Source: a virus (taxonomy: Duplodnaviria; Caudoviricetes). From it: 64,000 nt of DNA. The translations under genes and the position numbers were made by a program. Positions 1 through 3,201 of the stretch are shown here, piece by piece. The stretch lies in IMG/VR virus record IMGVR_UViG_3300033121_001944, positions 1-64,000 of that record. One strand, given 5' to 3'. The notes under the pieces were generated by a model, which was not told where the DNA came from, searched no databases, and was given only the letters and a program-made list of their open reading frames with translations. Every line of letters starts with the position of its first letter. Position 1 is the first letter of the stretch.

Positions 1-230
1 GGGCGTCGCTCAACAGTCTTGAACGCGGGCGGTGATTTCTTGCGGCATTTAGGGGGCTTTGCGTTTAACCGCATATTTTCGGCACCCCCTGCCAGTTTAA
101 CCGATTGTCGCCATTCTTTGCGGTTAGCCGCATTAGCTGTTTCAATCAGTTGTTTTGCTTCGCTTTCGATAGCTTCCGCCATCGTGCAAAGCACTTTTTT
201 CTTTTTTTGTTTTTGTTTGCGTTTATTCAT
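1..230 (-). CDS. Hypothetical protein with basic N-terminus (MNKRKQKQKKKKVLCTMAEAIESEAKQ...), truncated by window edge
   Basis: ATG at 230 (minus) preceded by GGAAGGGA SD; frame is open to position 1; not in the supplied ORF track. Confidence 0.7.
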   Translation of the reverse strand, partial: MNKRKQKQKKKKVLCTMAEAIESEAKQLIETANAANRKEWRQSVKLAGGAENMRLNAKPPKCRKKSPPAFKTVERR

Positions 231-249
231 AGTCCCTTCCCTTGTCGGT

Positions 250-620
250 CCCAGCTAAGAATCTTTACATCGTCCGTAGACATCCCATTACGGCGACCCG
301 CAAAAGGCAACCTTACCAGAGAGAGTAAGGGGGAGAATTTCGATTTACGGTTTCCCGCTTCTACTCTAATCCACAGTTTATAGATAGACTTTTAACCGCA
401 TCCGACAACGTAAGAAAAACGATTGTCTGAATCGTGTCTATGTGAACAGTCCCGCAGATACGGTTTCCCGTATTGTTTAGGCTGTCTCCCGAATTGCCAA
501 TGAACCCCGGAAAAAACTATCGCGTCTCCAGCCCGTTAACGGTTAGGTGTGCCGCTAAGCTTTCGCCTAGAAGTATTGACCTATCGTCCGGCATACTTGC
601 GGGTGGTCTACCACCATTAT
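250..620 (-). ncRNA. Candidate structured non-coding RNA or long structured leader
   Basis: No credible ORF. At least 7 hairpins: 270-296, 311-330, 347-358, 419-435, 458-473, 555-570, 602-615. Three of them close GAAA tetraloops when read on the minus strand. Confidence 0.5.
346..470. repeat. 12-bp direct repeat TACGGTTTCCCG (346-357 and 459-470)
   Basis: Exact match read in the sequence; each copy is a CGG-GAAA-CCG stem-loop on the minus strand. Confidence 0.85.
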
Positions 621-624
621 CTAA

Positions 625-708
625 TTATTCGTTCCATGCAAGGTAAAGCATGCCACCAACAGACGACAGGAAGACAACCGCGAAAGTTACCGTCATGATA
701 GTCAGCAT
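625..708 (-). CDS. 27-aa single-TM peptide (MLTIMTVTFAVVFLSSVGGMLYLAWNE)
   Basis: AAGGGG SD before ATG at 708; TAA at 625-627; hydrophobic; downstream of the predicted promoter at 749-776. Confidence 0.55.
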   Translation of the reverse strand: MLTIMTVTFAVVFLSSVGGMLYLAWNE

Positions 709-748
709 AGCTTACCCCTTGTTTGCCGGACTTCTGTCCGACTCCCCG

Positions 749-776
749 ATTCTACCATATATAATCGGCAACACAA
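749..776 (-). promoter_or_regulatory. Host sigma70-type leftward promoter (extended -10 TGGTAGAAT)
   Basis: The minus strand reads TTGTGT-N16-TAGAAT with the TGn extension, pointing into the peptide, RNA and ORF unit. Confidence 0.5.
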
Positions 777-1023
777 TAGATCGACGCCAATAATTCCGAA
801 AAGATTCCATAAAGATATAGTGGGGCGGCTTGCCGCAAAATCTAACGATTGGCTGACGGCAGTCTTGACATGGGGGCATTTATAGCGTTTGGATTCCATT
901 GGTGGGGACACCCCCCAAAAGGCGGGCGGCGTCTACGCAAACCTCCCAAACTTTTTCCAACAATGTAACAACCAGACTAATTAGATCCCCATCCCCCCCT
1001 TTCTTACTGCGGACACAGTACGC

Positions 1024-1035
1024 GGTGTATTTATA
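1024..1035 (+). promoter_or_regulatory. Putative phage late promoter motif GGTGTAT-TTATA
   Basis: One of 9 copies of GGTGTA(T/A)+AT-rich tail at gene starts; upstream of 1077. Confidence 0.65.
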
Positions 1036-1076
1036 CATTAGTAACTCAACTCATTTTTTTAAATAAAGGACCCACA

Positions 1077-2534
1077 ATGGGAATCTATTCGAACAGTGTC
1101 CCCCCTAACAAACGCCCCCGCCTCGGTATTAACTTAGAAGACCCCTCCTATTATATGGAGGAAGTTCCCTTTACCGATTTGGGAAAGGTTATCTCCCACT
1201 GGAATTCATCTAGCGGCGGTTTCTACAATAATGGTCAAACTCTCCCCATTAATGCGTTTGGTTACCCTTCGGGCACGTTCCCCCCTAACCATCAGGCGAT
1301 GTTCCAGATTGATATGGGTTCGGGTCACCCGCCCGGCTACTATAATGTTCGCTGGCTCCCAACGGGCGTAGCCGTTTCTATTGATAATGCCACCCCCAAC
1401 TCATTCACCTTCCTAAAGGGAACGGGGGCTGTACACTCTCAGCTTATTCGCGTCGGCTCCGGTATTACCTACTTGGGTATTACTAGATCGGGAGATCCCT
1501 ACACAGATGCCGACCAAGTCTTTCAAGAGCCTTTCTTGAGACGGTGCCGCAATTATGAGGCAATCCGCTTTATGAACTGGCTCCTAACTAATACGGATCG
1601 CACCGTCACTTGGGAGAATCGGACCCCCTCCGGCTACTTTACAAATTCCATCACGAATGGAAGTGGTGCCGCCATCGAATATATGGTCGATTTGTGCAAC
1701 GCGACCCAAACTGATATGTGGTTTTGCGTACACCATAAGGCTACCAACGATTATATTATTAAGGCGGCGGAATTCATTAAGGGCAGGCTGAAGCCCGGTC
1801 TCAAGGTTTATTTGGAGCACTCCAACGAAGTTTGGAACGCGGCTTTCCCCCAATACGTTTACTCGACAGGAGTTGGCGTCGGTCCCACCGGAATTGCAGA
1901 CACATACGCTCGCGCCTACGCTTGGCACGTTGCCCGCACCGCCACCGCAGCCCAAATTTTCAAGGCGTCGGGCATCCCCACCGTTTCTGTCCTCGGTGTC
2001 CATTTTGGCAACCCCGGCTTCACCCCGTTTGCGGTCGGTCAGGGCGTGACCATCTCTGGTAACATTGACGCCTTCGCCGTGGGACCCTACCTCGGTAACA
2101 CTTTCTATAGCTTGCCCCACGTTGTGAGCGGCGTTAAGGCTTACGGTGTAAACTGGACGCTCGGCGAACTCTGGCGGGATCTTTACCAGCAGCGGCTTTT
2201 GATGAAGCAGTGGATGGATAATTGTCGCACCTACGGCAAGCAGCTCATTGCATACGAGGCGGGGCAGCACCTAGCTGTTAGCTCGGCTCAACATAGTGAT
2301 ACCGCCCTCTGGCAAGCCTTCATTGATGCGAATCGGCACCCTGGCATGTACGACATTTATCGGGCTTTCCTACAGATGTGGTACGAGGAGACAGATAACT
2401 CCCTAATGATGCTATTTAATAGTTGTCAACATTACGACCAATATAGTAACTGGGGACTTATGGAATATGATAACCAGCCCAACGCACCAAAGTACCGTGC
2501 CGTTATGGACCATTTGTCAGATTATAGATATTAG
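1077..2534 (+). CDS. Putative clan GH-A-like (beta/alpha)8 glycoside hydrolase / polysaccharide depolymerase
   Basis: Motifs LGINL..PF.D, IRFMNW, IEYMVDLCN..D.WFC.HH, LEHSNEVWN (NE acid/base) and AYEAGQH (nucleophile) match a bacterial family often annotated cellulose-binding protein. Confidence 0.65.
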   Translation: MGIYSNSVPPNKRPRLGINLEDPSYYMEEVPFTDLGKVISHWNSSSGGFYNNGQTLPINAFGYPSGTFPPNHQAMFQIDMGSGHPPGYYNVRWLPTGVAVSIDNATPNSFTFLKGTGAVHSQLIRVGSGITYLGITRSGDPYTDADQVFQEPFLRRCRNYEAIRFMNWLLTNTDRTVTWENRTPSGYFTNSITNGSGAAIEYMVDLCNATQTDMWFCVHHKATNDYIIKAAEFIKGRLKPGLKVYLEHSNEVWNAAFPQYVYSTGVGVGPTGIADTYARAYAWHVARTATAAQIFKASGIPTVSVLGVHFGNPGFTPFAVGQGVTISGNIDAFAVGPYLGNTFYSLPHVVSGVKAYGVNWTLGELWRDLYQQRLLMKQWMDNCRTYGKQLIAYEAGQHLAVSSAQHSDTALWQAFIDANRHPGMYDIYRAFLQMWYEETDNSLMMLFNSCQHYDQYSNWGLMEYDNQPNAPKYRAVMDHLSDYRY

Positions 2535-2558
2535 AAAAAGCCCCCCCCCGCGAAGCTA

Positions 2559-2586
2559 TTGACTTACCCCCCGACAAAGCTATAAT
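2559..2586 (+). promoter_or_regulatory. Consensus sigma70 promoter TTGACT-N16-TATAAT
   Basis: TTGACT at 2559-2564 and TATAAT at 2581-2586; ATG of the sigma-like gene follows after a 6-nt gap (2593) with no SD. Confidence 0.8.
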
Positions 2587-2592
2587 GCTTAT

Positions 2593-3201
2593 ATGATTAA
2601 TATTAAACCCAGCGGCTTTTATCGCCCAGTGAGCGAGGCGGACCTCATCGAGGCTGTCGAATCGGCTTCGAGCCGCCTTGCCTATAAGTTTAGATTTGGT
2701 TACCACACAGCAGAAGATATTAAGCAGGAGGCATGGGTGCTCGCCCTGCGTATTATTGATGCGGGAAAGTGGGACGAGGTGCGACCCCTCAAAACGTTTC
2801 TTTATATCTGCCTTCATAACCAATTGTATAATTTTAAAAGAAATAAGTATTTTAGACCGAGTTGTCCATGTGATAAGTGCCCCCTAAACGCTTACGTTAA
2901 GGATACCGACCATTGTTTAGAGTACGCCTCCAAAGACGAATGCAAACACTTCTCAGCCTGGATCAAACGTAATAATGCTAAAAAGGCATTAATGCACCCC
3001 ATCGACATAGAAACTATCTTTAATAATCATGTTAGTACCGGGCTTACCCCAACCGAAATCGCGGAATACCTGGACTGGGTAGAGCGGCGGCTCCCGTTAG
3101 AGTTTGCCGAAACTTGGCAGCTAGCTCGCTCCGGCGAACGTTACAACCAAGCCAACTTTCTAGAAATGGTGGGCTGGCTACAAGAGAATATTGAGCTATG
3201 A
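2593..3201 (+). CDS. Phage-encoded sigma70/ECF-like sigma factor (probable late sigma) with Cys-rich insert
   Basis: Region-2 pattern AEDIKQEAW...RPLKTFLYICLHNQLYNFKRNKY; CPCDKC...C...C insert; short degenerate region 4 (RRLPLEFAETWQL). Confidence 0.7.
   Translation: MINIKPSGFYRPVSEADLIEAVESASSRLAYKFRFGYHTAEDIKQEAWVLALRIIDAGKWDEVRPLKTFLYICLHNQLYNFKRNKYFRPSCPCDKCPLNAYVKDTDHCLEYASKDECKHFSAWIKRNNAKKALMHPIDIETIFNNHVSTGLTPTEIAEYLDWVERRLPLEFAETWQLARSGERYNQANFLEMVGWLQENIEL

Follow-up and report, generated by a model that had tools for sequence, protein, structure and literature searches.

The window analysed here comprises bases 1-64000 of an 89,383-base IMG/VR virus record, a linear record of an uncultured phage that is about 57% complete. 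Close to its first base, a non-coding gap (231-1076) separates two diverging genes, a minus-strand ORF (3-230) for a small basic protein and a plus-strand ORF (1077-2534) for a protein of 485 aa (Table 1). The contig start falls within the basic-protein gene (window 1-3), therefore the remainder of the early operon is missing from the record. A first-pass annotation had placed a candidate structured RNA on the minus strand of this gap, between a 27-aa ORF and the next SD, and we confirmed this position: the RNA is bordered by the peptide ORF (625-708) on one side and by the SD (233-241) and ATG (228-230) of the basic-protein gene on the other. The basic protein gave no match in Pfam or PHROG, and the linked proteins gave none in Pfam, PHROGs and two ESM Atlas look-ups. 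AlphaFold2 models the basic protein with a confident long N-terminal helix (pLDDT above 90) that is basic and Lys-rich, and with a low-confidence remainder. A second gene of 174-201 aa, which follows the basic-protein gene and is also conserved, was seen only in L014, L007 and L024 (related metagenome contigs are denoted by L numbers); its structure model (mean pLDDT 66) resembled no fold in the PDB at E up to 0.001. The 485-aa protein also has metagenome homologs at about 27-37% identity, including some in MAGs labelled Tepidisphaerales and Planctomycetota, which may hint at the host range or at a host-derived gene.

The first-pass annotation further placed the RNA at the start of an early transcript. 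Promoter-like sequences are consistent with this placement, which is not itself observed in a window that begins at a linear contig's end. From the sequence we infer that the extended -10 element at 749-757 works as a promoter, and likewise where the transcript ends. Boxes of the form TGnTAnnAT occur in the same place in L020 (TGTAGAAT), L008 (TGGTACAAT), L013 (TGATATGAT) and L006 (TGGTAGATT), and the hairpin just past the putative transcription start has counterparts at the same position in L020 (GUCGGGUG-GAAA-CGUCCGAC) and L008 (CGCGGGG-GCGA-CCCCGCG). L010 has the promoter and 5' hairpin in common with L020 and then diverges before its contig ends. Further upstream, a second block on the minus strand (GUUGUUACAUUGUU...CGCCGCCCGCCUUUUGGGGGG...GCUAUAAAUGCCCCC, window 872-977) is common to L013, L014 and L010; it includes a conserved TATAAAT block at 872-886, a putative promoter, and resembles a further promoter or operator region of the early genes. 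The gaps of L008 and L006 hold several copies of TTGTTAC-type words, and within the L007 gap a stretch of 107 nt is repeated at 74% identity (L007, L008 and L009 are one sequence).

Table 1. Coordinates of the genes, signals and RNA elements near the start of the window (position 1 is its first base)
Feature	Position	Strand	Remarks
Downstream gene	3..230	-	Small basic protein MNKRKQKQKKKK..., cut by contig end; 121-124 aa in relatives
SD GGGAAGGGA (233-241) and ATG (228-230) of downstream gene	228..241	-	
Whole structured RNA, about 395 nt	231..625	-	From peptide stop codon to next start codon; alignments with L013, L014, L020
Long-range helix, 3' strand AGAUUCUUAG CUG GGA CCGACAA	242..264	-	Ends one base from SD
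Hairpins CCUUUUGCGG-GUCG-CCGUAAUGGG (284-307) and GUC-UACG-GAC (272-281)	272..307	-	
Hairpin CCUUAC-UCUCUCUG-GUAAGG	311..330	-	Covarying
Hairpin GCGG-GAAA-CCGU	347..358	-	Then (G)UAAAUC; inside tiered stem
Switch segment CGUUGUCGGAUGCGGUUAAAAGUCU	386..410	-	400-410, P1 3' strand; 386-408, long-range helix 5' strand
P6 hairpin ACGAUU-CAGAC-AAUCGU	419..435	-	Then U-tract 412-419; invariant in type A
P5 outer helix GACAGCCU/GGACUGUU	445..486	-	Around AUACGG-GAAA-CCGUAU (458-473); compensatory changes
Conserved segment UUCAUUGGCAAUUCGGGAGA	485..504	-	Nearly invariant in window, L013, L020, L014
P3 compound stem CGC/GCG, GCC/GGC, GACG/CGUU, UAGGU/ACCUA	517..601	-	Variable tip
P2 hairpin GUGG-UAGA-CCAC	603..614	-	Two pairs changed on both sides in L020
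P1 5' strand AUUAGAUAAUG	615..625	-	Pairs with 400-410; weakly supported
27-aa hydrophobic peptide ORF MLTIMTVTFAVVFLSSVGGMLYLAWNE	625..708	-	Stop codon overlaps first base of P1 5' strand
5' hairpin GUCGGAC-AGAA-GUCCGGC	725..742	-	Just past putative transcription start
Promoter-like extended -10 TGGTAGAAT	749..757	-	TTGTGT 16 nt upstream; read from sequence
485-aa ORF	1077-2534	+	No family in Pfam and PHROG

The 27-aa ORF upstream of the RNA is probably genuine and encodes either a small membrane peptide or a leader peptide. In L020, a homologous 29-aa ORF (L020:95-184, plus strand) ends in GGMLFLAWNE, sharing the C-terminus GGML[YF]LAWNE with the window, and in both sequences the stop codon overlaps P1. 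L013 has lost the peptide ORF by a precise deletion that left its last three codons and kept the RNA, and neither L013 nor L008 has an upstream ORF of this kind. At the same position, L014 carries an unrelated 52-aa ORF (MKFKITFLYRG..., L014:3397-3555, minus strand) with a strong SD and a stop six bases before P1. Judged from these sequences, the recurring feature is some ORF ending at the 5' edge of the RNA, not one particular peptide.

The stretch 231-625 is non-coding. As the first-pass annotation had stated, it holds no credible ORF, and this is the case under code 11 as well as with any single stop codon reassigned. Most insertions and deletions among homologs (23, 3, 1, 1, 2, 2 and 12, 2, 1 bases) have lengths not divisible by three, and substitutions fall evenly on all three codon phases, without codon periodicity. 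The three GAAA hairpins described earlier (CUAGGC-GAAA-GCUUAG at 555-570, AUACGG-GAAA-CCGUAU at 458-473 and GCGG-GAAA-CCGU at 347-358) were all recovered on the minus strand, as were the stems at 602-615 (GGUGG-UAGA-CCACC), 419-435 and 311-330. Pairing is also present at 270-296, but what had been taken for one stem is two hairpins (284-307 and 272-281).

GNRA hairpins with a stem of at least 4 bp number three, compared with 0.37±0.60 in 1000 dinucleotide shuffles (6 of which reach three), i.e., about eight times the shuffle expectation, and the plus strand contains none with a stem of that length. Both the GNRA loops and the G·U pairs are confined to the minus strand, as had been noticed before. 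Folding was better than in shuffled controls: the minimum free energy of 231-624 on the minus strand is -123.7 kcal/mol (z -2.07, with 5 of 100 shuffles as good), compared with z -0.09 for the plus strand, and the leaders of the homologs gave z-scores of -3.50, -4.22 and -3.68, which none of 100 shuffles equalled. The opposite strands of the homologs fold equally well (z about -3.6), and the folding z-score was for this reason dropped as an indicator of strand. We assigned the strand instead from the G·U pairs, the GNRA loops and the direction in which the promoter and the genes point.

Homologs of the RNA were found in five other metagenome contigs, namely L013, L014, L020, the diverged L008 and the partial L024. 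The 485-aa protein has six close relatives (65-89% identity) in Logan/ENA assemblies, whose contigs were examined. Relatives are contained in the DNA runs SRR14126297, SRR12762282/85/87, SRR25392350, SRR23285957, SRR33541896, SRR22000166, ERZ27275552 and ERZ27275390. The L013 RNA is 93% identical to that of the window over 252 nt, where the contig terminates inside the RNA, yet its 485-aa protein is only 71% identical. L014 and L020 contain the full leader, at about 69% and 79% identity, respectively. L020 was reached via the downstream protein, as was L024, via a distant homolog of it (E 6.6e-12), and these two were the only yield of the final homolog searches. L008 is strongly diverged and keeps UUGGCAAUUCGGGAGA and CGGAUGCG at the same spacing; a covariance model of the core (R1, window 378-505) matches it at 22.5 bits (E about 0.01), and both of its P5 helices are rebuilt from different bases. 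Only 285 nt of upstream sequence are present in L024, and these have the same layout, P5-J-P6-GUAUGCGG and then a tiered hairpin with UAAA behind it. In L006, the 485-aa protein is the most similar of all (89%), but the RNA is missing and the early genes are unrelated; its whole early module (L006:3203-4000, minus strand) is swapped, with a promoter of the TGGTAGATT type kept and a leader of only about 150 nt. The early region is mosaic among the relatives, as read from their sequences.

Beyond these contigs, blastn against GenBank phages returned no match to the RNA, and exact-pattern scans of IMG/VR, JGI metagenomes and GTDB genomes gave chance matches only. A search for related loci that started from the 485-aa protein yielded only relatives that are distant and not syntenic, and one that started from the basic-protein alignment yielded nothing. 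L016-L019 and L021-L023 were rejected as homologs, having only a seed word in common with the RNA, and so was L026, in which the match lies within a tape-measure gene. No second copy of the RNA was found in the genome. The RNA is rare: six sequence variants of it are known to date, each from an uncultured phage. It occurs together with the basic-protein gene, and immediately upstream of it, in all five loci in which the downstream gene is known, and both are absent from the one locus with a different module (L006). Its conservation is similar to that of the flanking protein genes, and the neighbouring intergenic DNA is not alignable.

The first-pass annotation had named the lack of covarying homologs as a result that would speak against the RNA; covarying homologs were found. 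RNAalifold, applied to the window, L020, L014 and L013, predicted 69 pairs, 18 of them with compensatory changes. In a curated model of 60 pairs, 89.9% of cells are paired across four sequences, compared with 34-45% once the 3' partners have been moved along by 1-3 columns. Thirteen pairs of this model are changed on both sides, compared with 5.7±1.7 in column shuffles, none of 500 reaching 13, with the reservations that related sequences may beat shuffles even without structure and that there are only three independent full-length type-A sequences, so that the statistics are thin. The model has P5a one column off register (the RNAalifold pairs have the correct register), and its figures consequently understate the support.

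Compensatory changes are distributed along the whole RNA. P2 changes from GGUGG/CCACC to GGCAG/CUGCC in L020, and in P3 the helix GACG/CGUU reads GGAA/UUCC in L020 and ACGA/UCGU in L014. At its variable tip, P3 has the GAAA hairpin 555-570 in the window, CGG-GUAA-CCG in L014 and no hairpin in L020. Four outer and two inner pairs of P5 have compensatory changes according to RNAalifold: P5a changes from ACAG/CUGU to ACUA/UAGU and AUGG/CCAU, and P5b from AUACGG/CCGUAU to UUGCGG/CCGCAA, while L008 keeps both helices with entirely different sequence. P6 is replaced by GUUAACG/CGUUAAC in L008 and by UAUCGG/CCGAUA in L024. The GAAA hairpin 347-358 is kept in L020, L014 and L008, and the flanking GA/UC pair changes to GG/CC. 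Hairpin 311-330 reads CCUUGC/GCAAGG in L020 and L014 and CCUACG/CGUAGG in L008. In L014, hairpin 284-307 is rebuilt as a perfect 10-bp helix (UCUAGUUCAA/UUGAGCUAGA) and 272-281 becomes GUU-UACG-AAC. The helices are interspersed with unpaired blocks of almost invariant sequence (GGCAAUUCGGGAGA, UUCRCAUAGA and GGAUGC). No pairing of segment 485-504 is backed by covariation, and its UUGGCAAUUCGGGAGA persists in the diverged L008. Two further pairings were dropped, an RNAalifold hairpin UCC-GGGGUUC...GAAUUC-GGGA (about 484-508) that shows no covariation and is not conserved in L008, and a pseudoknot candidate between GCAAUUCG and CGGAUGC in which both sides are invariant. Altogether, the sequence comparison shows at least a dozen helices to be maintained by compensatory substitutions, and we are highly confident that the locus encodes a genuine conserved structured RNA.

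The first-pass annotation could not assign the RNA to tRNA, tmRNA or introns, and our searches agree. ARAGORN reported 0 tRNA or tmRNA genes in the window. Of the 4227 models of Rfam 15, none matched window 1-3000 at E up to 10, none reached its gathering score anywhere in the whole window, and none gave a hit at E up to 10 inside the RNA of L020, L024, L013, L014 and L008. These models included riboswitches, ribozymes, group I and group II introns, RNase P, tmRNA, 6S and phage pRNA, and also GOLLD, ROOL, OLE, HEARO and raiA. Short-motif likenesses to RNase P, T-box and cobalamin RNAs seen by eye were dropped, as Rfam gave nothing. The RNA is thus a new family without an Rfam counterpart, of a general kind that is known (structured regulatory leaders or large ncRNAs).

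The 3' part of the RNA connects the fold to the start of the downstream gene. A long-range helix of 20 pairs joins 386-408 (UUGUCGG...CGGUUAAAAGUCU) to 242-264 (AGAUUCUUAGCUG...CCGACAA); 95% of its cells are paired, compared with 27-53% when the strands are slid, and five pairs are changed on both sides (e.g., CCGAC/GUCGG to CCAAU/AUUGG). The SD and start region (AAAGGAAARRACUAUGAAU) is conserved in L020 and L014. The SD is predicted to be mostly paired in the window, L020 and L008 (mean unpaired probability 0.23, 0.25 and 0.34, respectively) and mostly open in L014 (0.64). In all three full sequences, the U-tract that follows P6 (412-417) is complementary to the SD, a complementarity of low complexity, and L008 has a perfect 10-bp complement (UUCCUAUCUU) of the SD region (AAGAUAGGAA) adjoining the conserved core.

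The 5' strand of the long-range helix shares bases with P1, the pairing of 615-625 with 400-410. P1 is complementary in four sequences (93% of cells paired, compared with 30-48% when slid), with mismatches in the window and L013; it shows no excess over column shuffles, and all of its changes are one-sided, via wobble pairs. Forcing P1 or the alternative fold gave -116.7 and -129.0 kcal/mol in the window, -118.9 and -122.2 kcal/mol in L020, and -123.1 and -121.8 kcal/mol in L014, i.e., the alternative is favoured by 12 kcal/mol in the window and the two are near-isoenergetic in L020 and L014. It is plausible that P1 closes the 5' domain into a multi-helix junction.

Our leading interpretation, which we hold with about even confidence, is that the RNA works as a cis-acting translational control leader for the gene behind it. 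The RNA of about 390 nt would belong to an early phage transcript and act in cis on the basic-protein gene. In an off state, the long-range helix and the U-tract would mask the RBS, and in an on state P1 would capture the shared strand, leaving the RBS free. The balance between the two could be set by a ligand or protein bound at the conserved 5' domain, by the basic protein itself in an autoregulatory manner, or by ribosomes terminating on the upstream small ORF, the stop codon of which overlaps P1. Such a conformational switch and its effector are inferred from the pairings described above. The first-pass annotation had offered an ncRNA, a ribozyme or a regulatory leader; nothing supports a ribozyme, the structured RNA or leader stands, and among the three the anatomy favours a leader, because the fold ends at a helix abutting the RBS of the next gene and because the RNA always accompanies that gene. 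A leader of 390 nt is, however, far larger than masking an RBS requires, which suggests an additional or different function.

This size, with at least 12 helices, three GNRA loops and invariant unpaired blocks, would be accounted for if the RNA were a stable stand-alone ncRNA, or formed an RNP with the adjacent basic protein, after processing from the early transcript. Such an RNA would act in trans, e.g., as a scaffold, decoy or host-takeover factor, like the large ornate bacterial and phage RNAs. The co-inheritance of RNA and basic-protein gene fits this explanation, as does the long Lys/Arg-rich N-terminal helix confidently predicted for the protein, which is of an RNA-binding kind. However, co-inheritance may merely reflect synteny among a handful of relatives, no terminator or recognisable processing site separates the RNA from the gene, the covarying terminal helix extends right to the SD, and neither a second genome copy nor any Rfam likeness to GOLLD, ROOL, OLE, HEARO or raiA was found, so that we consider a stand-alone RNA rather unlikely. 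A role for the basic protein also underlies antitermination of the N/nut (or put) type, in which it would bind GNRA hairpins in its own leader, modify RNA polymerase and repress its own translation. The layout matches lambda pL-nutL-N (an early promoter, a long structured leader with GNRA hairpins and a small basic first gene), and the protein model, with a confident basic N-terminal helix and a low-confidence, possibly disordered remainder, would suit an N-like protein. Against it, boxA (CGCUCUUA-like; [CT]GCTCTT[TA]A with up to one mismatch) is absent from the leaders of the window, L020, L014 and L008, the stems of 3-9 bp carry tetraloops (GAAA, GUAA or GCGA) and not boxB pentaloops, and the P3 tip, one of the three hairpins, is dispensable, L020 having none there. 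The protein is rich in Lys, not in Arg, and belongs to no Pfam or PHROG family, and nut sites span about 30-40 nt, whereas the whole 390 nt covary here, which together make antitermination distinctly improbable.

It is very unlikely that the RNA processes or truncates the early transcript as a transcription attenuator, self-cleaving ribozyme or self-splicing intron. Hairpin 311-330 with its moderately U-rich tail appears terminator-like in a consensus scan, a hairpin and tail of similar type occur in L020, L014 and L008, and a U-tract directly follows P6. Nevertheless, these stems are weak for terminators (6-7 bp with 3 G-C pairs), the one terminator-like site in the region (330-311) is no more than shuffles give, the U-rich tail doubles as the 5' strand of the covarying hairpin that follows, and it lies within the span of the covarying helix 386-395/255-264. 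As to ribozymes and introns, no homolog matched Rfam at E up to 10, nor was there a match to RF00028, and no exons could be joined, because the downstream gene owns its conserved SD and ATG and because L013 and L008 have no upstream exon-like ORF. Least probable of all is that the locus has no function at the RNA level and that its hairpins arose by chance or from DNA-level signals such as operators, an origin or a recombination hot spot. The mosaicism of the region, with different sequence in L006 and L010, the equally good folding of the homologs' opposite strands, and the 93% identity between the window and L013, which could stem from recent exchange, are compatible with this explanation. 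It is contradicted by the many pairs changed on both sides, in helices with strands up to 160 nt apart, by the restriction of G·U pairs and GNRA loops to one strand, and by conservation at the level of the flanking protein genes, unlike the unalignable intergenic DNA nearby.

Returning to the cis-acting leader, the features by which a riboswitch sensor is recognised, i.e., covarying helices, invariant junction nucleotides and a position upstream of a gene, were all found. It is tempting to speculate that the RNA is the first example of a previously undescribed class of large sensor RNAs (about 390 nt) in early phage transcripts, which read the state of the host, although we consider this extension unlikely. 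The blocks GGCAAUUCGGGAGA, UUCRCAUAGA and GGAUGC would then form a pocket that binds a metabolite, ion or protein of the host; via strand 400-408, which the two pairings share, its occupancy would determine whether translation of the first early gene takes place. If true, this would add a new riboswitch class, carried by a phage and reading the host at the start of infection. Few structured RNAs of more than 300 nt are without an assigned function, and each of those studied has revealed new RNA biology. The candidate described here offers clear helices, strand-specific features and a testable link to the RBS of an early gene. Its confirmation would provide a new RNA family together with a new means by which phages time or gate early expression, and would give the always-linked basic protein its first functional clue. 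For now, it is a well-supported candidate and not a mechanism.

Among known systems, translational riboswitches likewise combine covarying helices around invariant junction nucleotides with a peripheral stem that varies in length, and the 3' side of their closing helix can pair with the 5' end or, alternatively, with a segment adjoining the SD. In contrast to them, the RNA described here matches no known class in Rfam, its P1 is weakly supported, its 'platform' holds about 150 nt of extra conserved hairpins, and the gene regulated would be a phage early gene rather than a metabolic one. Phage autoregulatory operators (T4 gene 32, gene 43 and regA; the MS2 coat/replicase hairpin) offer the analogy of a phage protein with affinity for nucleic acids that could attach to a structure at the RBS of its own gene. 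Each of these operators consists of one hairpin or pseudoknot of 20-60 nt, in contrast to the RNA described here with its about 390 nt and many helices, for which a complex with the basic protein is putative.

With GOLLD, ROOL, OLE, HEARO and raiA the RNA has in common a length of several hundred nt, many helices, GNRA loops and an unknown biochemical function, and some of the large ornate RNA classes are described as phage-associated (10.1101/2024.12.08.627333). Unlike them, it is fused to a downstream RBS and known from only six sequence variants, and it does not match the Rfam models of these five classes. In lambda, the N gene follows nutL at a distance of about 200 bp, with a highly structured leader between them, and N together with Nus factors represses N translation (PMC5725501). 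The leader described here differs from that of lambda N in having no boxA, in carrying GAAA tetraloops instead of boxB pentaloops, and in being about twice as long and covarying over its whole length; nor is its protein detectably related to N. The arrangement of an early promoter, a long structured leader with GNRA hairpins and a small basic first gene is nevertheless that of lambda pL-nutL-N, where the translation of the first gene is controlled through the leader (PMC5725501).
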